Source: a virus
DNA length: 64,000 bases
Strand: one strand, 5' to 3'
IMG/VR virus record: IMGVR_UViG_3300017605_001118
Location: 3,332 to 67,331 of that record
Positions 20,938 through 62,594 of the stretch are shown here, one piece after another. The translations under genes and the position numbers were made by a program. Every line of letters starts with the position of its first letter. Position 1 is the stretch's first letter. The notes under the pieces were generated by a model that was not told the origin of the DNA, did not search any database, and saw only the letters and a list, made by a program, of their open reading frames with translations.

Positions 20938-20939
20938 TC

Positions 20940-21571
20940 CGTTCAGTACCTGTCCCACTATGCCCCCGGTATGTACCTCTTTGTGAGGATGTAAAGCCGT
21001 TCCGAGCATGTCCCATTTCGTCTCTGGTACGTACTGCTTCCTCCTTCGGAGTCCCAAGTTACTGAGATGTCCGAGTCAAGATCGTTGTTTTTCGTTCCGA
21101 AGTGGGCCAAACCAGGACTTCAAGATGTCCCAGCTTGTCACAGAAAAGAGGGGTCGGGAGGGACGGAGGTAGCGGGAGGGAAGGTTCCAGGCACCTCCCA
21201 CTCACGTAAAAACACACGTTTCCTAATACCCGTAAGTAACATATACGCAGAGTTACATGTTACGCTACAGTACGTATAACGTATTATTTTCAGCTCGTGC
21301 ACCTAGGTTGTAGAAAACCTCCGTTACCTCCCTCCCTCCGGACCGTAGTTTTTCGTAGCCTAAACGGACATTTTGAGGTCCGGGTCTGTACCGATTCGGA
21401 ACGAAAAACAACGATCTTGAACCAAGCTATTTCGTACATACCTGCGTGTCGGTTCCCTTACCCCCACAAACCAGAGACAAAGTAGGACATGCTCGGAACG
21501 GCTCAGACTCCCCACAGACCAGGACAAACCAGAGACGAAGTGGGACATGCGTTGAACGAGTCGTTCCGCTT
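20940..21571. repeat. ~630-bp non-coding nested-palindrome element, copy A (candidate origin)
   Basis: Reverse complement of most of 61722-62366; internal inverted arms around an AT-rich core. Confidence 0.9.
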
Positions 21572-21690
21572 CCCGGACGTCGATTCAAGGTCCTGAGACA
21601 TCGCCGACACGCCTTTGGAGACCACGATCGACGGGGTTCCCTCCCCCCACCCCTCCGTCCAACCGGCAAAGGACACGCCCAGCCCTTTCA

Positions 21691-21749
21691 GAAAAGCCTG
21701 TCCCACCTGCGGAAAGATGTCTTTGGAGGGACGCTGGAGGGTACCCTCC
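21691..21749 (+). repeat. 59-bp box, direct repeat of 62508-62566
   Basis: GAAAAGCCTGTCCCACCTGCG...TTTGGAGGGA.G..GGAGGGTACCCTCC. Confidence 0.85.
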
Positions 21750-21766
21750 GTGCGACGATGGGCCCC

Positions 21767-22844: not shown

Positions 22845-25800
22845 TGTCGTCGGCTCCGTAGAAGTCCGGATCACGGTTGACGAGGATCCCGCCGAACGGG
22901 CTTTCCGGGAGATGCGCGCCGCGGCCCGGGAAGCGTCCCGGCAGACCGTGCGCAGCCTGGATCAGATCTCCGACGCCATCGGCAACATCTCTGTCGACAC
23001 GGAGCAGACTGCGGAGTCCCTGAGCCGGGGTCTCAACAACGCGGTCGAAGTAGCGCAGGCCCGTATCCGGGCCGTCGACGTCCAAGCCACCGTGGACGCC
23101 GGAGCGCAGGCCCAGGTCAGCCGGCAACTGCGGGCAGTTGTTCAGCAGTCCCAGGCCGCGATCCGGGCGGTACGGGTCAACGCGGATCTGGACGACAACG
23201 CCCGGACCCAGCTCACGGCGGATCTTCAGGCCACAGTCCGCGCCGCTCAGGGGCAGCTCAGGGACATTCAGCTCGGGGTCGATGAAGCGGCCCTGGCGGA
23301 GGACGTTCGGCAGGCGGTCCGTGTTGCCGAAGCTACGGCTCCTCCGGTCGAGATTGAAACCCGGGTCGACACGGACCGCCTTTCCAGGGTCGGCGCCGCA
23401 CTGCGGGCGATCGGGGAGGCTGCGCGGTCCACGGAAGGACCGGCAGCCAGGTCCGGATCCTTGCTGCAATCGATCGGGTTCTCCGAACGAGCCCTGTCCC
23501 GGGTGAAGCTCGTGGTGGCAGGTATCGGAGCCGCGTTCGCCACCCTGACGCCTTCCGTTGCCGGCCTTGCGGCTGCGCTGGCCCAGATCGCCCCTGCCGC
23601 CGCAGTAGGAGCAACCGCCGTCCTCGCCCTGGGTTCGGCGGTAGGCGCCATCGGTATCGGTACCCGGGGTGTCGGGGACGCGATCAAGGCGGTGTTCGCC
23701 CCCGCGACGGCCGCGGCGGGAAGCGCTGCCGGAGCGTCCAACGCCTACGCCAACGCCCAGCGTGCCGTCAAAGACGCCGTGGAACAGGCGGCCCTGGCCA
23801 ATGAGCGGGCCGCCCGGCAGATCAAAGACGCTGAACGGGCCCTGTCGGATGCGCAGAAAGAAGCTCTGCGTGCGCAGGAAGATCTGAACGACGCACGCAA
23901 ACAAGCAGCCAGAGATCTGGAAGATCTCAACAGTCAACTGGCCGGAGCCCAACTGGACCAGCGCGGCGCGATCCTGGACCTGAAGGAAGCCGAAGCCGAA
24001 CTGGCCGCTGTCCGCGCCAAGGGACGCAAGGCCTCCGCACAGGAACTCGCCGAAGCCGAACTGGCCCGGGACCGGGCCATACAGCGGCTCAAGGACCAGG
24101 GCGTGGAAACCAAGCGCCTGACCTCGGACACGGCCGAGGCCAACCGGGTCGGGGCCGCCGGGTCCGACACCGTACGGGAGGCGCAGGACCGCGTGGCCGC
24201 CTCCCAGCGGGCAGTGGGAGATCAGACGCAGGCCCTGCGGGACGCACAGGCCGAGGCGGCCCGTACCGCGAGGCAGGGGCTGGAGAGCATCCGGCAGGCG
24301 CAGGAGTCCCTGACCCAGTCCGTGGGGGGGTCAACGGGCGGAGTCAACAAGCTCGCCGAAGCCATGGCCAGGCTCTCCCCCAACGCAAGGGCGTTCGTTC
24401 AGGAGATCATCGCCCTGAAGGGCGCGTTCAGCGCCGTCCGGGTCGACGTCCAGGAAGCCCTGTTCGAAGACCTGGCAAGGGAACTGAGGATCACCGCGGC
24501 CTCCGTCCTCCCCGTCCTGCGTAAAGGGCTCGTGGACAGCGCTGCGGCCCTGAACGACATGACCCAAGGTGTAGCCGCATCGGCCCGGGAACTGGCGGAC
24601 AACGGAACCCTGGGCAAGGCGCTGAAGTCCGCCAACCAGGGGTTGCGAAACCTGTCCGAGACCCCCGGGATCCTGACTACGGCTTTCGTCCGGCTGGCAG
24701 CCGCTGCGGGACCGGCCTTCGAAAAACTCACCGCAGCTGCTGCGGAGTCCGCAGAAGACATCGGGAACCGGCTCGGAGCGGCCTTCGAATCAGGCCGTCT
24801 CGAAACCGCCATCGAACAGGCCATCGACCTGATCGGGCAGCTCTTCAGCGTCCTGGGCAACGTCGGGGAGATCCTCGGGTCGATCTTCGACGCCGCGAAC
24901 ACCAGCGGGGCCGGGTTCCTCAGCACGCTGGAGACCATCACCCAGTCCATCGCGAACGCCTTCGCCTCACCCCAGGCACAGGCCGGCCTTACGGCACTGT
25001 TCTCCCTTGGCGCCGTAGTGGCCCACACGCTGGGAACAGTCCTAGTGGCTGCTCTGAAGGCCGTGGGGCCCGTTGTCGCCGCCCTGGGACCGTCGCTGGA
25101 AATACTGGTGTCCGCCTTCGGCACAGCCCTGGTAACGGCCTTCACGGCCCTTGGACCGGTCCTGGTCTCCGCAGCCGATGCCCTAGGAACCCTGATTGTC
25201 GCGATCTCCCCGCTCATCCCCGTTCTCGGTGATCTGATCTCGTTCGTGCTGCCCGTTCTGATCCCGCTGCTGGACGGGGTAGGAGCCGCCTTCGAAAAAG
25301 CCTCCCCGTTCATCCAGTCCGCGGCCGACGCACTTTCCCAGAACCTTGCGCCCGCAATGCGGCGGGTCCATGAGTTTCTGGACCCCCTGCTGGAAAACCT
25401 CCGCCCTCTGGCCGGGGAAGTCCTCCCCCGGGTGACCGAGTTCGCAAACGGAGCCGCAGCGTCTCTGGGGCCGCTGGCGGCGTCCTTCGGGGACCTGTTG
25501 TCTTCGATTGCCCCCGTGGCCGTGGAACTCGCGACGTTCGCCGGAGGGGTTCTTCTCGGTCTGGCCGCCGAAGTGCTGCCGGTCGTGATTTCTTTGATGG
25601 ATGGTCTAGCAGAGATCTTCCGGCAGACCGCTCCGGTGCTCCAGACGCTGGCAGGGATTCTGACCAGGGCGTTCCTCCCCGTGATCAGCCAACTTGATCA
25701 AATCCTTCCTCCGATCATCCGCGCGTTCACAACCTTGACCGGGGCAGTTCTCCCCTTGGTCGATCGGCTGCTCAAAACCATCGGCCCGTCAGTGGAGAAC

Positions 25801-45169: not shown

Positions 45170-45679
45170 CTACTCCATCAGGGCCGCGTCGGCCGCGGCC
45201 TGCCCAACCGGCACGTACACGGCCGAGTACAGCTTCGGCGGCTTCAGGTTCCCCGTCTTCTGCCCCTTACCCGTGTATGTCACGGTGAGCACGCCGCCCA
45301 GCTCCAGCGTCTTCGCCCCGGCCTTCAGGACCGCGTCCCGGATGGCGGCCTGCATCTTGCCCTTCACGTACAGGGTGCGCTTGCCGTCGTCGTCGAGAAG
45401 GGGCACCTTCTGCCCCTCGTCATCGAACTTGTACCCCGTGGGCTCGCACTGGATCTCCACGGGCATGTGCATTTTGGGCGCGCCGTCATCCCAGAACAGA
45501 GGGGAGTTGTCATCGAAGTTCCGCTGCTGCTGGACTCGCTTGGACAGCACGGTGCCGGTGTACGAGTGGCCGATCTCAGGGAACTGAGCTCCCGTGGCTC
45601 CCCCCGACATGAGGAAGGCGTCGGGGTCCGACTGGGCAGCGGGCTTCGGGGCGAAGGGGTTCTGGAGGGGACTGGTCAT
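45170..45679 (-). CDS. single-stranded DNA-binding protein (probable)
   Basis: Q...F.....L.WDDG.PK, DDG.R.LYVKG, L..GG.L.V.YTG, K.Y.A.Y. Confidence 0.7.
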   Translation of the reverse strand: MTSPLQNPFAPKPAAQSDPDAFLMSGGATGAQFPEIGHSYTGTVLSKRVQQQRNFDDNSPLFWDDGAPKMHMPVEIQCEPTGYKFDDEGQKVPLLDDDGKRTLYVKGKMQAAIRDAVLKAGAKTLELGGVLTVTYTGKGQKTGNLKPPKLYSAVYVPVGQAAADAALME

Positions 45680-45722
45680 GAGTTCTTGAGTCCTTTGTGA
45701 GTCGGTCGTTTGGGGTATTGCG

Positions 45723-45795
45723 TGGATCTGGCGGGAATCGAACCCGCGACCCGTCCTTTTTAAGGGGACTGCTCTGCCATTGGAGCTACAGATCC
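45723..45795 (-). tRNA. tRNA with anticodon UAA (nominally Leu), short variable loop
   Basis: GGATCTG/CAGATCC acceptor, GCTC/GAGC D-stem, GTCCC-CTTAAAA-AGGAC, GCGGG-TTCGATT-CCCGC, A73; no encoded CCA. Confidence 0.85.
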
Positions 45796-45901
45796 GTGGG
45801 AGTGAAGGATTCGGACCTTCTCGGGAACCGCGCGCTCCCTTTACCGTGCCGTGGCCACCGGCCTCCCTGGTTCCGATTTAATCAAATCGGAGCGTCCTCC
45901 G

Positions 45902-47971
45902 TCAACCGCCCAGCGAAGCCAACCGCTCCTGGCCGATCTTCACCAGTGACTGAAGCCGCTTCTCGCTCAGACCTGCCGCAACGGCAGCCTGGAACAGGGA
46001 CGACAGCGCGGCCCTGGAACCGGCCTGCGCGAAGCGCTCCTCCCAGGTCGGTTCCGGCACGGAGACGGGTTCCCCCAGCATCTTGAAGCCGACCTTCCGG
46101 GACCGCCGCTTACGGACCGTGCCGGACAGGGCAGCGTCCTCCCAGCCCCCGTCCAGCGGCACCTCATACAGCGTGCACACCGCCTTCCCGTATGGCATGT
46201 GCATCACGATGCCGATGTCCGTGCGGACCTCAGGCCCCGGCTCCCATCGTTCCTCGCCCGGGTTCCACAGGCCCGAGGCGTTGACGCCGTGGGCGTACAG
46301 AGCGAGTTGGATCGCGATCTCGAGCTGTTTGTAGTCGAGGCTTCCGGGTGTGTTATGTGTGGGGATCATCCGATCTCCGCACAGGTACGTGCGCGTTGAA
46401 GAATCCACAGCGATGCACGCGGTGTCGACATCGGGGCCTGGGTCCACAGAGACGATCAACCTCCGACGGGAGCGCACGAGAGGCTTCTTTGAAGCGGCTG
46501 CCTGGTCCGCCTTCCTGGGAAGACGGAAGGGATTCAGGTCCACCGGAGTGAACTCGACGTGATAGCACATCACCTGCTTGCCAAACCCTTTGGTCCGGAC
46601 TCCCGCCAGACAAGGTCGCTGACCCAGGCTCAACAGGAGTTCCTCGGTTTGAAGAGCCAGAGCCTTATCTGTGCTGTAGAACACGGCCGTCTTCCGAGCC
46701 GTGTTCCAGGTGCCATCCGTGTCCAGGAGACCCTGGAGAAGTCGCAACCTCTGAGGCACGGAAGCCCGTAGGTAAATTTCCGGAATGTGCTTGTTGTCCA
46801 AAACGCCGAGTTCGCGGAGCTGCGTCACAAGGCCCAGGACAGTCCGCGTCACGCACTTATCGGAGTGGCATTTCTTGGGCAGCCCGAGGCGGTGTCCGTC
46901 TGACTCCAGGATCTCGAACAAATCGGAGCCTTTGGTGATCGAACCTGCCTTCGCAGTGCCGTCCCCCAGCCAGCACCCCAAAAGGTACGGGTCCACGGGC
47001 AGGTCCGCGTCAGGAAGGTTCAGTGGACCTGCCACGGGGACTCGGTGATGTTTTTGTCCTTGAGAGCTCACGAGAGTGGCTCTCACTTCTTCGATGGACT
47101 TAGCCGTAGGGGTTCCTGGACGAAGCCCTGCCGCGGTCCACCAGATGTGCTCCGTGTCGCAAACTACGGAGGAGCCATCGTCAAACCTGACGATGTAGGT
47201 ACCGATCCTCTTGGCCTCCGATTTGGCCGTCACCCGACAAACCTCACCGTACGCGTCGAATACCCGATCCCCCACCACGACGTCCTTCATGGTCGTCCAC
47301 CCCGAAGGGGTTGGGATCCGTTCGGTAAGCGCGAGGCCCTTCACATCCCCGATGGCGTAGGTCCCGTCAGCAAGTCGGAGGACCCGGTCCAGCTTGCCGG
47401 CCACGCCCAGCTCGGGGATCGCAGTGACCCGTTCGATCAGGTGGGGGAAGACCTCAACCCCACTCGCCTTCAGAGCCGCCCGGTAAGCGAGGACATCTGG
47501 GCGTTCTTTGACCGGGGCCCGGTCCAGGGTGCCGCCTCCGTCCAGGACTTCGGTGTGCGTGTGCATCCGGGTGCCCCGGTCCGCGGCCTCTTCGCCGCCG
47601 GCGGACCGCTTCAGCTTCTTGACGATCCGGTTCAGCTTTTCCCGGTCCGTCTTCACGTCCAGGCCAGTTGCCTCGGCCACCAGGTCCGGCCGCAGCGTCG
47701 CCCCCACCAGTGCCATACGCAGCTCCCACTCCGACAGGGCGAACCTGTCGCTGAGCGTCGGAGCGAAGTTGGTGGCCCGTGTCCAGGACTGCCACTTCCC
47801 CGTTTCCGGGTGAGGGAGCCAGTACCGGCCGTTCTTCATCAGCGGCTGCTTGTCCGGTTGCATGAGAAGGTCGTCTACGGGGTCGACAACCCTCTCATGC
47901 TCCCCGGAACGACACAGGACGCAGTGCACCGTTTCGGGACCGCTGTGTTTGATGCGGGCTGGGTCGGTCAT
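45902..47971 (-). CDS. PD-(D/E)XK (Cas4/RecB-like) exonuclease interrupted by an intein
   Basis: RGT.MH...E, AGKLDR, IGDVK|T, QLALYA; intein between K and T. Confidence 0.85.
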   Translation of the reverse strand: MTDPARIKHSGPETVHCVLCRSGEHERVVDPVDDLLMQPDKQPLMKNGRYWLPHPETGKWQSWTRATNFAPTLSDRFALSEWELRMALVGATLRPDLVAEATGLDVKTDREKLNRIVKKLKRSAGGEEAADRGTRMHTHTEVLDGGGTLDRAPVKERPDVLAYRAALKASGVEVFPHLIERVTAIPELGVAGKLDRVLRLADGTYAIGDVKGLALTERIPTPSGWTTMKDVVVGDRVFDAYGEVCRVTAKSEAKRIGTYIVRFDDGSSVVCDTEHIWWTAAGLRPGTPTAKSIEEVRATLVSSQGQKHHRVPVAGPLNLPDADLPVDPYLLGCWLGDGTAKAGSITKGSDLFEILESDGHRLGLPKKCHSDKCVTRTVLGLVTQLRELGVLDNKHIPEIYLRASVPQRLRLLQGLLDTDGTWNTARKTAVFYSTDKALALQTEELLLSLGQRPCLAGVRTKGFGKQVMCYHVEFTPVDLNPFRLPRKADQAAASKKPLVRSRRRLIVSVDPGPDVDTACIAVDSSTRTYLCGDRMIPTHNTPGSLDYKQLEIAIQLALYAHGVNASGLWNPGEERWEPGPEVRTDIGIVMHMPYGKAVCTLYEVPLDGGWEDAALSGTVRKRRSRKVGFKMLGEPVSVPEPTWEERFAQAGSRAALSSLFQAAVAAGLSEKRLQSLVKIGQERLASLGG
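46352..47338 (-). mobile_element. intein with LAGLIDADG homing endonuclease (329 aa, class 3-like)
   Basis: GLALTERIPTP start, EHIW, YLLGCWLGDG, LQGLLDTDG, TACIAVD, PTHN|T. Confidence 0.88.
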
Positions 47972-48191: not shown

Positions 48192-48908
48192 TCACTCCTT
48201 CACAAACAGGCGCTCTTGCGTCGATCGTCGGTCAGTGGTTTTCGCCACGGACATTCGGTGATCAAACTCCGCTATGCACGTGAAGTCTTCCGGAGCGGAG
48301 TATTCGCTGACCAGAACCAGAGCTCCGCTCTTCGCTTGGTCTCGGCACCAAGACCAGAACTTGTCGTGGTCAAAACCTCCGGAGTCCCGGTACCCCAAGG
48401 TTCCCTGGTAGGGCGGGTCGCAGTAGACGACGAATCGTTCGTTTGCCTGTCCGGTGTCGTAGCCGGCGTTCTTGAACTGGACGTCTGTGCCTTTTAGTTC
48501 AGCCATCCTGGACGAGGCTGCCCGGATGGATTCTGCTTGATGGTCCCGAGGAGCGCCGTCCGAATTGAAGCCGCCTCGGGCGTATCCTCCGAACCACTTG
48601 CCTCCGAACGAACCTCCGAAACCCGCCAGCCCACGAATCGCGCTGGGTTCTGCGCTCTTGAGGTCCGCGTACTCCTGTTCAGAGATCGTCTCTGGGGGAG
48701 CCCACCCCGAGTGCAGGGCGGACCAGAGTTCGATCAAATCCGGGTGGGCGTCACTCGCCACGGCCTTCTGAAAACTGGGGGCGATCATGGAGAATGAATT
48801 CAACCCTCCGCAGAAGGGCTCCCAGTAGACGTCTCGGTCACCTCGGCGAGACAGGATCTCCGAGAGAATCCTCTTGGCAATTCGTTTCTTACTGCCGACG
48901 TAACGCAT
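48192..48908 (-). CDS. dam: DNA adenine methyltransferase (Dam/D12 class)
   Basis: RYVGSK, EPFCGG, YCDPPY, FDH, VSEY. Confidence 0.88.
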   Translation of the reverse strand: MRYVGSKKRIAKRILSEILSRRGDRDVYWEPFCGGLNSFSMIAPSFQKAVASDAHPDLIELWSALHSGWAPPETISEQEYADLKSAEPSAIRGLAGFGGSFGGKWFGGYARGGFNSDGAPRDHQAESIRAASSRMAELKGTDVQFKNAGYDTGQANERFVVYCDPPYQGTLGYRDSGGFDHDKFWSWCRDQAKSGALVLVSEYSAPEDFTCIAEFDHRMSVAKTTDRRSTQERLFVKE

Positions 48909-51133: not shown

Positions 51134-51868
51134 GTGCAATACATGGGAGGAAAGGCCAAGATCGCTCGACGCCTCGTGGCCGCGATCTTGGACGACACAG
51201 CCAATCGACTGAACTGGTTCGAGCCCTTCGTGGGCGGTGGAAACGTCCTCGAACAGGCCGCGCCCCACTTCACGCGGTCTGTCGCCATGGACGCGCACGA
51301 GGATTTGATCCTCATGTGGTCCGCAGTCAACGGCGGGTGGGGTCCGCCCGAGTTCGTCTCCAAAGATCTGTACGCGGAGCTGCGTCACGCCGCACCTTCG
51401 GCGCTTCGCGGGTACGCCGGCTTCGCCGCGTCCTTCGGGGGCAAGTGGTTCGGAGGGTACGCCGCCGGCCACGTCCGGCCCGGAGAGAGACAGACCATCG
51501 CAGCGGGTTCCCGGAGAGTGGTCCTCCGCCAATCCTCCGTGATCCGAGCTAACTCGGTCGTCTTCCGGCACGGACCTTTCGGGTCCCTGACGCCTCCCGC
51601 GGGGACGGTTGTCTACTGCGACCCTCCTTACGCGGGGACCACGCGGTACAACGGGATGGCCCCGTTCGACCACGCTCTGTTCTACAAGACCTTGGGCATC
51701 TGGGCTGACTCGGGGCGCGACGTCTACGTCTCCGAGTACGCGATTCCGGACGAGGTGCCCCACTTGATCCTTTGGTCTGGGGAACAGCGGAATGGGTCCC
51801 TCAAAAAAACCGCCAACTCTCGGGTAACGGTCGAGAAGCTGTTCAAGATCACAGGAACCGAGGGCTGA
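51134..51868 (+). CDS. dam: second DNA adenine methyltransferase (Dam/D12 class)
   Basis: QYMGGK, EPFVGGG, YCDPPY, FDH, VSEY. Confidence 0.88.
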   Translation: MQYMGGKAKIARRLVAAILDDTANRLNWFEPFVGGGNVLEQAAPHFTRSVAMDAHEDLILMWSAVNGGWGPPEFVSKDLYAELRHAAPSALRGYAGFAASFGGKWFGGYAAGHVRPGERQTIAAGSRRVVLRQSSVIRANSVVFRHGPFGSLTPPAGTVVYCDPPYAGTTRYNGMAPFDHALFYKTLGIWADSGRDVYVSEYAIPDEVPHLILWSGEQRNGSLKKTANSRVTVEKLFKITGTEG

Positions 51869-55971: not shown

Positions 55972-57198
55972 ATGACGCTACGACTTGGATCCCTGTGCAC
56001 GGGGTACGGCGGCCTCGACGCCGCCGTGGAACGGGTCCTGGGAACAACCACGGCGTGGACCGCTGAACGCGACCCGTTCGCCTCCGCCGTCCTGGCTCGC
56101 AATGATCCCGGGGTACCCAACCTGGGTGACATCACCGCCGTCGACTGGACCTCCGTGGAACCGGTCGACGTCCTGACCGCGGGCTTTCCGTGCCAGGACA
56201 TCAGCAACGCCGGTCTTCGCGTCGGTATCACGGGTCCACGGTCCGGCATCTGGAAGAACGTGGCCGAAGCCGTCCGCGTCCTGCGTCCGAAGATCGTCCT
56301 CCTGGAGAACGTGGCGGCCATCAAGAACCGCGGTCTGGACGTGGTCACCGAAGACCTGGAGAACATCGGTTACGGGATCCGCTGGTGCATCGTCAAAGCG
56401 TCCGACGTGGGAGCGCCCCACCAGCGGCGCCGCTGGTTCGCAGTCGCCGAACCGATGCCGTCAGGAACCGGTCCGGTCGAAACGGGCGTCCTGGAAATCC
56501 CCGCCGGGCCGCTGCTGAAGACGCCGACGTCCAACCTGGGGCGCAACGGCGGACCGCAGGACCCGGTCAAGCGCAAGGCCGGCGGCCACGGTCCGACGCT
56601 GGAAGACGAGGTCTCGGCTCTGCTGCCCACGCCGGCAGCCCGTGACTGGAAGTCCTCCGCGTCCAACCTGCACGGAACCAACTCCCGGCCCCTGAACGAG
56701 GTCGCGGTCTTGCTGCCGACCCCTACGGCGTCCAGCTACGGGCGCAACAAATCCGCGAGCTCCGGGGCTTCGATCCGGCCGTCTCTGGAGCATTTGGCGC
56801 CAACTCTGCTCCCAACACCGAAGGCGTCCGACGGTCCGCATGGCGGACCCAACGGCCGTGACGGGAAAGGAAACCTCTACCTCCCGGGTACCGCGATCCG
56901 GACTGACGCGTCTTGGACCTGTTCGGACGGCCGTGACTTCGGACCGGCTGTACGCCGCTGGGAGGACCTGACGGGACGCCTCGCACCCGATCCCGTGGCC
57001 GTGGGCCCGAGGGGCGGCAAACGGGTCTCCCCGGCCTTTGTCGAGTGGCTGATGGGCCTTCCGTCCGGCCGGGTCACCGACGTACCCGGGATCCCGTTCC
57101 GGGAACAGTTGAAGATCCTCGGCAACGGGGTTGTACCCCAACAGGCCGAGTACGCCTACCGGACCATGCTGAACGAGTCAAGGAACGAGGAAGTATGA
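55972..57198 (+). CDS. dcm: DNA cytosine-5 methyltransferase
   Basis: SLCTGYGG, GDI, GFPCQD, LENV, HQRRRWF, LLPTP repeats, EWLMG, LGNGVVP. Confidence 0.92.
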   Translation: MTLRLGSLCTGYGGLDAAVERVLGTTTAWTAERDPFASAVLARNDPGVPNLGDITAVDWTSVEPVDVLTAGFPCQDISNAGLRVGITGPRSGIWKNVAEAVRVLRPKIVLLENVAAIKNRGLDVVTEDLENIGYGIRWCIVKASDVGAPHQRRRWFAVAEPMPSGTGPVETGVLEIPAGPLLKTPTSNLGRNGGPQDPVKRKAGGHGPTLEDEVSALLPTPAARDWKSSASNLHGTNSRPLNEVAVLLPTPTASSYGRNKSASSGASIRPSLEHLAPTLLPTPKASDGPHGGPNGRDGKGNLYLPGTAIRTDASWTCSDGRDFGPAVRRWEDLTGRLAPDPVAVGPRGGKRVSPAFVEWLMGLPSGRVTDVPGIPFREQLKILGNGVVPQQAEYAYRTMLNESRNEEV

Positions 57199-57734
57199 CA
57201 CCGAAGTTGAAAGTTCTCGGGCTGGATTTGTCGATCACAGCCACCGGCATCGCCCACCCCAACGGGGTGACAGAGACCATCAAAACCCGATCTGACGACG
57301 GAGACCGGCGCCTGCTCCAGATCCGCGGATACCTCCGCAAGGCGGTCGACGCCGGAATCGACCTGGCCGTCCTTGAAGACCTCCCCACTCACGCGCACGG
57401 CGCGGGGATCACCGGCATGGTGCACGGCGCCGTCCGGGCCGTCCTCATGGGGGCCTCGGTCCCCTATGTCCTGGTCACCCCGGCCACGCTGAAGTCGTAC
57501 GCCACGGGCAAGGGCAACGCGGGTAAGCCGGACATGGCCGTGGCTGCGTTCAAGCGGTCCGGAGCCGAGTTCGGCGACGACAACCAGGTGGATTCCTGGT
57601 GGCTGAGGCACGCCGGGTTGGACCACTACGGCTTCGCCGAGTTCGAGCTGCCCCAGACGCAGCGGTCCCGACTGGACAAGGTGGACTGGCCCGACATGAG
57701 CTGGCTGGCCAACCTCGATAAGGAGATCTTCTGA
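57195..57734 (+). CDS. ruvC: RuvC-like Holliday junction resolvase
   Basis: LGLDLS.T.TG, VLE, P.TLK.YATGKGNA.K, DN..DS. Confidence 0.85.
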   Translation: MTPKLKVLGLDLSITATGIAHPNGVTETIKTRSDDGDRRLLQIRGYLRKAVDAGIDLAVLEDLPTHAHGAGITGMVHGAVRAVLMGASVPYVLVTPATLKSYATGKGNAGKPDMAVAAFKRSGAEFGDDNQVDSWWLRHAGLDHYGFAEFELPQTQRSRLDKVDWPDMSWLANLDKEIF

Positions 57735-58651
57735 TGGAGCGAATCACTCTCGGACAATTGTCCCCAGACGACGTCGCTCGTATGACGAAGTGGCAGCGCG
57801 AGGACCGTGTACGCGATCTCATCCGCGTGTCCCACCGCATCGTGGATGCAGCCCTGATCAATCACTTCAAGGGGCGGCGCGTCGCCGCTACCTGCATCCT
57901 GTTCTCCGGCGGCAACGACTCCACCACGCTGGCGCATCTCTTCAAGGATCGTGCCGATGTGGCGATCCACGCCAACACGGGTATAGGGGTAGAGCAGACG
58001 CGGGCCTTCGTGCGCGCGACCTGTGCGGAGTGGGGTCTCCCGCTGATCGAGAAGTCTCCCCCCGTGGGTGACACGTACCGCGAACTGGTTCTTGACCGTG
58101 GCTTCCCAGGACCCGGGCAGCACTTCAAGATGTACCAGCGTCTCAAGGAGCGTTGCCTGCGGCAGGCCCGCGCCGATCTAGTGAAGAACCCTCGCAAAGA
58201 GCGCGTACTGTTCCTCGCTGGCCGCAGGCGAACGGAGTCCGTCCGCCGGGCTGCCGTGCCCGCGTCTGGACGCGAGGGGTCCACGGTGTGGGCCTCCCCC
58301 CTGGTCCTGTGGACCAAGCCTGACCTGAACACATACCGCTTGATGTGCGGCGACGTACCGGTCAACGAAGTCTCCGATCTCATTCACATGTCGGGGGAGT
58401 GCCTGTGCGGCTCTTTCGCCGAGAAAGATGAGTTGGAGATGATCGGTATGTGGTTCCCGCAGGCTCGGGAACAGATCGAAGCTCTGGAGTCCGAGATCGC
58501 CGACCGGGGGGACATTCCGGAGATCCGACGCAAGTGGGGGTGGGGTGCGTACCGCGCCGACCCTGCGGCACTGAAGCGTCGGCCGAAGTCCGGGCCGCTG
58601 TGCACTTCGTGCGATGCGAGGGCCCACGGCGGCGTCGTAATTACTCGCTGA
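57734..58651 (+). CDS. PAPS-reductase-family (PP-loop) protein
   Basis: FSGGNDS PP-loop, NTGIG, GFPGP, LKER, GRR..ES..R, SGECLCG. Confidence 0.85.
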   Translation: MERITLGQLSPDDVARMTKWQREDRVRDLIRVSHRIVDAALINHFKGRRVAATCILFSGGNDSTTLAHLFKDRADVAIHANTGIGVEQTRAFVRATCAEWGLPLIEKSPPVGDTYRELVLDRGFPGPGQHFKMYQRLKERCLRQARADLVKNPRKERVLFLAGRRRTESVRRAAVPASGREGSTVWASPLVLWTKPDLNTYRLMCGDVPVNEVSDLIHMSGECLCGSFAEKDELEMIGMWFPQAREQIEALESEIADRGDIPEIRRKWGWGAYRADPAALKRRPKSGPLCTSCDARAHGGVVITR

Positions 58652-61723: not shown

Positions 61724-62366
61724 GCGGAACGACTCGTTCAACGCATGTCCCGCTTCGTCCCTGGTTTGTACCTGTTTGTGGGGAGTCTGGGCCGTTCCGA
61801 GCATGTCCTACTTTGTCTCTGGTTTGTGGGGGTAAGGGAACCGACACGCAGGTATGTACGAAATAGTTTGGTTCAAGATCGTTGTTTTTCGTTCTCAACC
61901 CGGACAGACCAGGACTTCAAAATGTCCGTTTAAGCTATGAAAAACTACGGTCCGGAGGGATGGAGGTAACGGAGGTTTTCTACAACCTAGGTGCACGAGC
62001 TGAAAACAATACGTTATACGTACTGTAGCGTAACATGTAACTCTGCGTATATGTTACTTACAGGTATTAGGAAACGTGTGTTTTTACGTGAGTGAGAGTT
62101 ACCTGGAACCTTCCCTCCCGCTACCTCCGTCCCTCCCGACCGTACTTTTCTGTGACAGATAGGTACATCTTGAAGTCCGAATTTGTACCAATCAGGAACG
62201 AAAAACAACGATCTTGATTCGGACATCTCGGTAACTTGGGCCATCGAGGAAGGAAGAGGTACATATCAGAGACGAAATGGGACATGCCCGGAACGGCTTT
62301 ACATCCACCCATCCACGGACATACCGGGGGCATAGTGGGACAGGTGCTGAACGAGTCATTCCGCTT
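61722..62366. repeat. ~645-bp non-coding nested-palindrome element, copy B
   Basis: Ends AAGCGGAACGACTCGTTCA / TGAACGAGTCATTCCGCTT; reverse complement of 20940-21571. Confidence 0.9.
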
Positions 62367-62507
62367 GGCGGAGGGCCCGACGCGGCCGTATCCATGGCCC
62401 CGGGCCGGCTGAGGCCTCCGTGTTCCCTCCCCCATCCTTCCGCTCATCGTCACTTAACAGACAAAGGTGACGGAGTGGGACACCTGCTGAACGGCTTCTC
62501 CGTTTCG

Positions 62508-62566
62508 GAAAAGCCTGTCCCACCTGCGAAAAGGTGCCTTTGGAGGGATGCAGGAGGGTACCCTCC
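62508..62566 (+). repeat. 59-bp box, direct repeat of 21691-21749
   Basis: See 21691. Confidence 0.85.
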
Positions 62567-62594
62567 TAGCTCTGATTCCCGGTAGACTGGGGGC

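Follow-up and report, generated by a model that had tools for sequence, protein, structure and literature searches.

In Streptomyces coelicolor, a type I tRNALeu(CAA) occurs beside the type II, long-armed bldA tRNALeu(UAA), and a single leucyl-tRNA synthetase (LeuRS) charges both (accessible part of Fan et al. 2019, PMC6614811). The same part of that paper names as identity elements for this LeuRS C74, a U8:A14 pair and a variable loop no shorter than 5 nucleotides (nt), does not count A73 among them, and reports that human mitochondrial type I tRNALeu is not charged by the enzyme. Here we describe a tRNA gene of 73 nt with the anticodon UAA and a short variable loop, which lies on the minus strand at positions 45723..45795 of a 64,000-nt stretch of viral DNA (the window), corresponding to bases 3332-67331 of the 67,331-bp virus record IMGVR_UViG_3300017605_001118. 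The gene is a real one, judged from its sequence probably functional, and the sole tRNA gene of an actinophage-like virus, with an anticodon that fits its body poorly. We tentatively favour, with rather less than even confidence, a role as a leucine-accepting decoder of UUR (UUA and UUG) codons, whose practical targets would be UUG codons.

Short-armed leucine tRNAs are not confined to the CAA species of S. coelicolor. A pattern scan of 401 Actinomycetota genomes (nine of them flagged as unpublished) detected an anticodon loop of the UAA type, with a T arm after it, in 265. Thirty tRNA(UAA) loci from Actinomycetota genomes, a subset chosen by the search and not a random sample, comprised 19 genes of 74-77 nt and 11 of 83-90 nt; in one genome, a short-armed tRNA(UAA) at 3733903-3733976 was the only UAA tRNA among its 45 tRNAs. 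Annotated tRNA-Leu(taa) genes of 74-75 nt are also present in Streptomyces phage Yaboi (gene 115), Gordonia phage Sixama (gene 148) and Mycobacterium phage Kykar (gene 27), and short tRNA-Leu annotations with CAA, CAG and UAG anticodons occur in further phages. One cellular short-armed tRNA-Leu sequence matched 308 phage records, for example KM236239 (62520-62596) and MH727564 (77008-77081). This phage family has a near-constant D arm, GCCC-AAUUGGCA-GAGGC, the members examined carry the anticodons UAA, UAG, CAG and CAA, and the hosts include Mycobacterium, Streptomyces, Citrobacter, Escherichia, Erwinia, Pseudomonas, Vibrio, Bacillus and Lactobacillus. A literature search pairing type I tRNALeu with bacteriophage found nothing, and a paper which, in its accessible part, treats UUA codons within phage terminase genes (PMC10732093) nowhere uses the term "phage-encoded". 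A short arm alone is therefore no mark of a non-leucine tRNA, as short tRNA-Leu genes, UAA species included, are widespread in Actinomycetota and phages. The premise of the original prediction for this locus, that a short arm excludes leucine, was incomplete and is not supported in view of the type I tRNALeu(CAA) of S. coelicolor (PMC6614811, accessible part) and the short UAA genes of these genomes and actinophages.

The UAA tRNA gene and its variants

Within the window, ARAGORN identified a single tRNA, at 45722-45795 on the minus strand with the anticodon taa. The Rfam tRNA model RF00005 matched end to end (model positions 1-71 of 71) at 45795..45723 with 59.6 bits (E = 2.2e-10; gathering score, 29), and this was its one match in the whole 67,331-bp record. 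The same model gave 149 matches scoring 29.9-71.9 bits in five actinophage records, and in two Actinomycetota genomes most of its matches about 70-76 nt long scored 55-75 bits, with one at 49.3; 59.6 bits is thus an ordinary score for a phage tRNA. The minimum-free-energy fold was a cloverleaf with a four-pair anticodon stem (-28.3 kcal/mol, z = -2.56), and 2 of 200 shuffled sequences folded as stably.

Drawn as a cloverleaf and read on the minus strand, the tRNA has the acceptor stem GGAUCUG/CAGAUCC with discriminator A73, the D arm GCUC-CAAUGGCA-GAGC, the anticodon stem GUCCC/AGGAC with a C31.A39 mismatch, the anticodon loop C-U-UAA-A-A, a variable loop of 5 nt (GGGUC) and the T arm GCGGG-UUCGAUU-CCCGC. 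The anticodon, U34 A35 A36, occupies 45760..45762 (where the plus strand reads TTA), position 34 being assigned by ARAGORN. U8 is present, the D loop opens with C and then AA, in a place where A14 is usual, and A15 faces C48. CCA is not encoded, the 3' trailer being CGC. The identical D arm occurs in 32 cellular tRNA genes, namely 28 for Lys(UUU), most of which come from Acidimicrobiia and other Actinomycetota assemblies, 3 for Trp and 1 for Thr, so that a D loop beginning with C is compatible with a working fold. The cloverleaf, CT-TAA-AA loop, GGGTC variable loop, A73 and C-A mismatch listed in the original prediction were all present; its list left unmentioned the minus-strand placement, the C in the A14 place and the missing CCA.

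Two other interpretations of the locus were rejected. A remnant of an integration site does not fit, as no integrase-family match was found among the 86 proteins in the PHROG scan and the cloverleaf is complete. Nor would the tRNA be an ochre suppressor, as the anticodon 5'-UAA-3' pairs with UUA and not with the stop codon UAA.

Small shares of the 1.2-kb region that surrounds the tRNA gene are present in nine public sequencing runs, of which four were compared. One (X2) had no coverage at the tRNA, and uncovered stretches are no evidence either way; the other three yielded contigs that are 90-98% alike and carry the tRNA in the same context, covering 45718-45995 (X1), 45677-45911 (X3) and 45749-45912 (X8, an RNA library). 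X1 and X8 are labelled as watershed and sediment metagenomes, and X3 is unlabelled. The differences listed include all three of X8, with two more in each of X1 and X3 standing outside them. Six of those listed fall inside the tRNA gene, three in stems and three in loops. Each stem change keeps or restores pairing: A67G gives U6.G67, C11U gives U11.G24, and C31U, in X3 and X8, gives U31-A39 in place of the mismatch. The loop changes are A38C, C48U and U60C, and no anticodon change was found among the differences listed in X1, X3 and X8. Because the stem changes keep or restore pairing and no listed change hits the anticodon, the variants suggest that, within a population of related phages, selection acts on the fold as well as on the anticodon.

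Amino-acid class of the tRNA body

We compared the UAA tRNA with 37 distinct short tRNA-Leu genes, cellular and phage, and with 180 other tRNAs of that length. It shares with the leucine set the basic features of a leucine anticodon and a variable loop of about 5 nt. U48, present in 37 of 37 short tRNA-Leu genes (55/180 others), is replaced by C48, although the X3 variant contig carries U at this position. Positions 13 and 22, unpaired in 35/37 short tRNA-Leu genes (26/180 others), are paired as C13-G22. The D stem, GCCC/AGGC in 27 of the 37, is the fully paired GCUC/GAGC. On these features, the UAA tRNA stands outside the short-armed tRNA-Leu family of actinobacteria and phages. Of the U8:A14 pair, an identity element for the LeuRS of S. 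coelicolor, U8 is present, and the first D-loop base is C. The earlier view that its body is unlike a leucine tRNA thus holds in its lack of U48 and of an unpaired 13:22.

The annotated tRNA-Leu(UAA) genes of Yaboi, Sixama and Kykar resemble the UAA tRNA in being phage-encoded, in their short variable loop, in the loop CUUAAAA and in their actinobacterial hosts. However, all three have U48 and an unpaired 13:22, whereas the phage tRNA described here has C48 and a fully paired D stem; the D arm is GCCC...AGGC in Yaboi and Kykar, the D stem is CGCU/AGCG in Sixama, and the D arm is GCUC...GAGC here. Over the whole length, 49-50 of 73 bases matched each of the three tRNAs. A BLAST search of 50,697 phage records with the UAA tRNA matched six records, none of them Yaboi, Sixama or Kykar.

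Against the 401 Actinomycetota genomes, BLAST gave a match at E <= 1e-4 in 72. Among the 30 loci listed, identity at 52 bases or more was reached by 10 Thr(UGU), 5 Gly(UCC), 3 Ala, 1 Met and 1 Gly(GCC) tRNAs, with neither Phe nor Leu among these best matches. We then used as a neighbour set 201 class-I-length tRNAs, drawn from six actinophages and a complete Actinomycetota genome that has 45 tRNAs in all. With anticodons masked, the tRNA-Ala(UGC) of Streptomyces phage pSt2308 came nearest, matching at 57 bases; in leave-one-out, this method classed only 107/201 correctly. In a profile test over 18 classes (leave-one-out, 141/199), Ala scored 33.9, Met 31.8 and Phe, in 10th place, 22.1; the Ala-Met margin of 2.1 is close to the median margin for misclassified tRNAs (2.3), that for correctly classified ones being 10.4.

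The nearest bodies are those of actinophage tRNA-Ala(UGC), such as pSt2308 (PV588686, 28249-28322) and Mycobacterium phage BeanWater. The first 26 nt at the 5' end match the pSt2308 tRNA-Ala at 24 positions, the next best of the 201 tRNAs matching at 21, and both tRNAs have the unusual D-loop opening CAAU and the 3' acceptor strand CAGAUCC. Of the 201 tRNAs, 8 have a D loop beginning with C; all 8 are phage tRNAs, and three of them are Ala. The identity of 77.9% between the UAA tRNA and the pSt2308 tRNA-Ala is comparable to the 78.4% between the latter and the mycobacteriophage tRNA-Ala. In contrast, the anticodon stem is wholly different, the anticodon is UAA where pSt2308 has UGC, a change at positions 35 and 36, and the acceptor stems differ solely at position 3, where A3-U70 stands for G3.U70, the determinant for alanyl-tRNA synthetase. 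No change at 45793 or 45726, which form the A3-U70 pair, was among the differences listed in the variants. These comparisons suggest a generic class I body, most like actinophage tRNA-Ala and not specifically Phe-like, with the class assignment uncertain. We read the anticodon as having shifted away from the original amino-acid class of this body, for which it appears ill-fitting.

The original prediction had derived the tRNA from tRNA-Phe. The anticodon GAA of tRNA-Phe is replaced by UAA, and Phe neither ranked higher than 10th of 18 in the profile test nor appeared among the best BLAST matches listed from the 401 genomes, so a Phe origin is not borne out. A35, A36, A37, A38, A73, U59, U60, G10-C25, A26 and G44 are nevertheless present, which we take to be part of the set recognised by the phenylalanyl-tRNA synthetase (PheRS) of Escherichia coli. 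A tRNA-Phe(GAA) altered by one sequencing or assembly error at position 34 would account for the anticodon loop, CU-GAA-AA being one base from CU-UAA-AA. However, the body is not Phe-like, and the contigs assembled independently from three other runs keep the gene with no anticodon change listed, X8 being complete at three of three differences. The single-base error that the original prediction had named as a possible undoing is, in our view, so improbable as to be negligible.

Developmental control of UUA decoding belongs to Streptomyces, and it would be unsafe to presume it for the phage described here. The virus looks like one of the actinophage kind, infecting a member of Actinomycetota: its capsid protein matched 877 phage records, whose hosts include Mycobacterium, Gordonia, Microbacterium, Arthrobacter and Streptomyces. 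All of these matches were below 60% identity (27.8-38.9% among the 25 matches listed) and spread over several host genera, and so they point to no single host genus. A link to bldA and Streptomyces, as put forward in the original prediction, is therefore not established. The UAA tRNA has the anticodon of bldA, but its 5-nt loop stands where bldA has a long, type II variable arm. The leucine system of S. coelicolor shows that leucine tRNAs with a short arm exist in this phylum and that the UUA codon has a tRNA with the anticodon UAA as its reader; the UAA tRNA of the phage differs in being phage-borne and without a Leu-type core, whereas the bldA tRNA is of type II and the type I species of S. 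coelicolor has CAA (PMC6614811, accessible part).

Codon use and possible function

In 94 called genes of at least 40 amino acids (aa), comprising 20,320 codons, in-frame TTA did not occur, while there were 138 TTG, 25 CTA, 14 ATA and 30 AGA codons. The other two frames of the same genes contain 58 same-strand TTA triplets. A check of gene starts revealed 14 genes whose open frame contains TTA ahead of the start that had been called. Five of them would gain one TTA each with the longest start, by added parts that have no PHROG match, one of which was inspected and appeared non-coding; the in-frame count is thus 0 and at most 5. Open reading frames containing TTA in two AT-rich gaps (see below) had no PHROG match either. 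TTA counts in relatives were made on stop-to-stop frames and are hence upper bounds only.

Position-specific base frequencies predict about 60 TTA codons, while the ratio CTA x TTG / CTG, a more informative measure, predicts 3.6, for which the Poisson probability of zero is about 0.03. The lack of TTA codons is therefore less striking than it appears and only mildly unusual. With no UUA codons in the phage genes, the tRNA has no part in decoding UUA for the phage itself. The original prediction, which had proposed counting in-frame TTA codons in the phage genes, suggested that the tRNA could bypass bldA control; with a count of zero, this suggestion is not supported for phage genes.

We tentatively propose instead a leucine-accepting decoder acting mainly at UUG. 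The tRNA would be transcribed with its same-strand neighbours, excised by host RNase P and 3' processing enzymes, and given its CCA by a host enzyme. Our best guess is that host LeuRS would then charge it with leucine. The anticodon UAA would read UUA and probably also UUG via U.G wobble, and the charged tRNA would add to UUR decoding, in practice at the 138 UUG codons of the phage, from which we infer a benefit. Leucine is favoured because the LeuRS of this phylum can accept short-armed tRNAs and because any other amino acid would presumably harm the phage by misreading its UUG codons. TTG makes up 9.5% of Leu codons (92/969) outside the structural block and 5.9% (46/783) inside it. In function the tRNA would resemble the short tRNA-Leu(UAA) of actinophages and in body the actinophage tRNA-Ala, although it has the defining features of neither, nor those of bldA or tRNA-Phe.

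Several observations weigh against this proposal. The body lacks U48, the unpaired 13:22 and the GCCC/AGGC stem, the first D-loop base is C, whereas U8:A14 is an identity element for the LeuRS of S. coelicolor, an enzyme that left a foreign type I tRNALeu uncharged (PMC6614811, accessible part), and the Leu profile, at 13.3, came 15th of 18 (Ala, 33.9). Compensation for the cognate codon fails at an in-frame TTA count of zero, TTG is rare in the most highly expressed genes (1/47 Leu codons in the major capsid gene and 0/14 in the major tail gene), and no tRNA was found beside the homologues of the upstream gene in four distinct loci (see below).

A second explanation is a tRNA directed at the host, which would carry an amino acid other than leucine (Phe, by way of A35, A36 and A73, or another one, the idea of Phe being that of the original prediction) or remain uncharged and would misread or stall at host UUA codons only, the phage being spared by its loss of UUA. 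A body that is not Leu-like, the bases of the PheRS set named above, the absence of TTA from the phage genes and an anticodon unchanged among the variant differences listed are all in keeping with such a role. However, Phe ranks low in the profile test and the tRNA has no G34; a TTA count of zero departs only mildly from expectation; and the UAA anticodon would misread 138 UUG codons of the phage itself, unless modification of U34 prevents this. We therefore regard this role as doubtful. A narrower form, in which an Ala-type tRNA re-aimed at UUA, with a non-leucine amino acid or none, garbles or stalls UUA-bearing host messages as a codon-targeted weapon, seems very unlikely; if true, messages of host regulators, defence or secondary metabolism would be hit and phage proteins would be untouched.

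The anticodon arm itself raises the question of defence. It carries C31.A39 here and U31-A39 with C38 in variants, and an unusual arm could confer resistance on a replacement or decoy for a host tRNA(UAA) cut by an anticodon nuclease. A lone tRNA would suit a single target more than general codon supply, and the idea has been published for mycobacteriophage tRNAs (van den Berg et al. 2023, PMC10264068, accessible part). Like the phage tRNAs proposed there to resist such nucleases, the UAA tRNA has an unusual anticodon arm and a presence that codon supply does not explain, but it differs in that neither a target nuclease nor a host tRNA is at hand for comparison and the phage has no codon in need of rescue. 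A replacement would be pointless for a phage without UUA codons, no nuclease targeting tRNA-Leu(UAA) is known for the host, and, in the accessible part of the same paper, tRNA-Leu(tta), in that paper's own notation, is among the tRNAs that the phages avoid encoding (PMC10264068). A role in anti-defence thus appears distinctly unlikely, and the decoding of UUG with leucine remains our preferred, if tentative, explanation.

Genomic setting and implications

The virus record has 141-bp identical ends (terminal repeats) and a G+C content of 65.1%. Gene calling gave 95 genes in total, and the scan of 86 proteins against PHROG revealed a long-tailed phage with portal, major head and major tail proteins, a tape measure protein of 1334 aa, a WhiB-like regulator, an FtsK-like protein, a primase-polymerase fusion, and several DNA methyltransferases and glycosyltransferases.

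The tRNA gene is situated in a 222-bp gap within a leftward block of replication genes, and both flanking genes are on its strand. The upstream gene (45902..47971, minus strand) encodes a 689-aa exonuclease/helicase-primase-like protein (phrog_466 and others), in which residues 407-452 match Pfam LAGLIDADG_3; this domain may represent an intein or a homing-endonuclease insert. The downstream gene (45170..45679, minus strand) encodes a 169-aa protein matching phrog_1911, to which no function is assigned. Between the upstream stop codon and the tRNA is a 106-nt leader (45796..45901, minus strand), which includes a terminator-like hairpin recognised in the sequence just after that stop codon (45901..45888). 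No sigma-70-like promoter was found before the tRNA. The RNA-library contig of X8, at 45749-45912, extends across the leader into the tRNA; it is a weak hint of a tRNA precursor, as an RNA-library contig alone is no proof of transcription.

Relatives of the upstream gene were located at two viral and four metagenome loci, four of them distinct, with 44-57% protein identity. In the flanks examined, a tRNA was found beside the homologue in none of the four distinct loci, indicating that the tRNA is not essential to the lineage, as it is absent at this place in relatives of that identity. The downstream gene was likewise not found in these loci, and a search for its relatives gave none. An exact-pattern scan for close relatives of the tRNA with any anticodon returned none in viral contigs and none in metagenome contigs. 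When a looser scan was made with the acceptor stem, 24 viral loci emerged, every one an unrelated tRNA, which ARAGORN called as 13 Met, 3 Asn and one each of Phe, Ile, Cys and Lys, with no call in three loci. In a related phage record of 59,432 bp, a 96-nt stretch (23981-24076) away from the homologous locus matched the Rfam tRNA model at 41.9 bits and had no ARAGORN call.

This patchy occurrence, with no tRNA at the four distinct loci and a downstream gene that is not conserved either, would suit a neutral passenger, that is, a gene acquired in a variable region, folded and perhaps expressed, which brings no selected benefit. The cognate codon is unused by the phage, and the C31.A39 mismatch, the C that stands for A14 and the facing A15 and C48 are oddities that would also fit. 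However, the three stem changes in the variants all keep or restore pairing with no anticodon change listed, working phage tRNAs typically have Rfam scores like this one, and the D arm whose loop begins with C is found in the 32 cellular genes, so that we consider a neutral passenger unlikely.

Two AT-rich gaps and a set of possible modification genes were also observed elsewhere in the window. The first gap (20938-21757, about 820 bp, 51-55% G+C) is inside the structural module and has no convincing gene; it contains a nested imperfect palindrome, with outer arms at 20940-21028 and 21470-21558 (89 nt, 73% complementary) and inner arms at 21076-21130 and 21366-21420 (55 nt, 85%), and 35 nt are directly repeated at 21466 and 21524. 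The gap may represent an inserted element, or else an origin or a regulatory region. The second gap (61724-62594, 871 bp, 53% G+C) has 16 TTA/TAA triplets and no open reading frame with a PHROG match. Three DNA methyltransferase genes and a phosphoadenosine-phosphosulfate-reductase-like gene are located at 48192-48905, 51134-51865, 55972-57195 and 57734-58648; together with three glycosyltransferases and one nucleotide-sugar epimerase encoded elsewhere in the phage, they hint at modification of DNA or of the cell surface.

Codon supply and resistance to host nucleases are the usual explanations for phage tRNAs, and the UAA tRNA fits neither well: its cognate codon is absent from the phage genes, its body and anticodon appear to be of different classes, and yet related phages keep both its fold and its anticodon. 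If the tRNA carries another amino acid, the phage would deliberately be supplying a tRNA by which a rare, regulatory codon of the host is misread. If, as we tentatively prefer, it carries leucine, actinobacterial LeuRS would accept bodies well outside the known family of short-armed tRNA-Leu.

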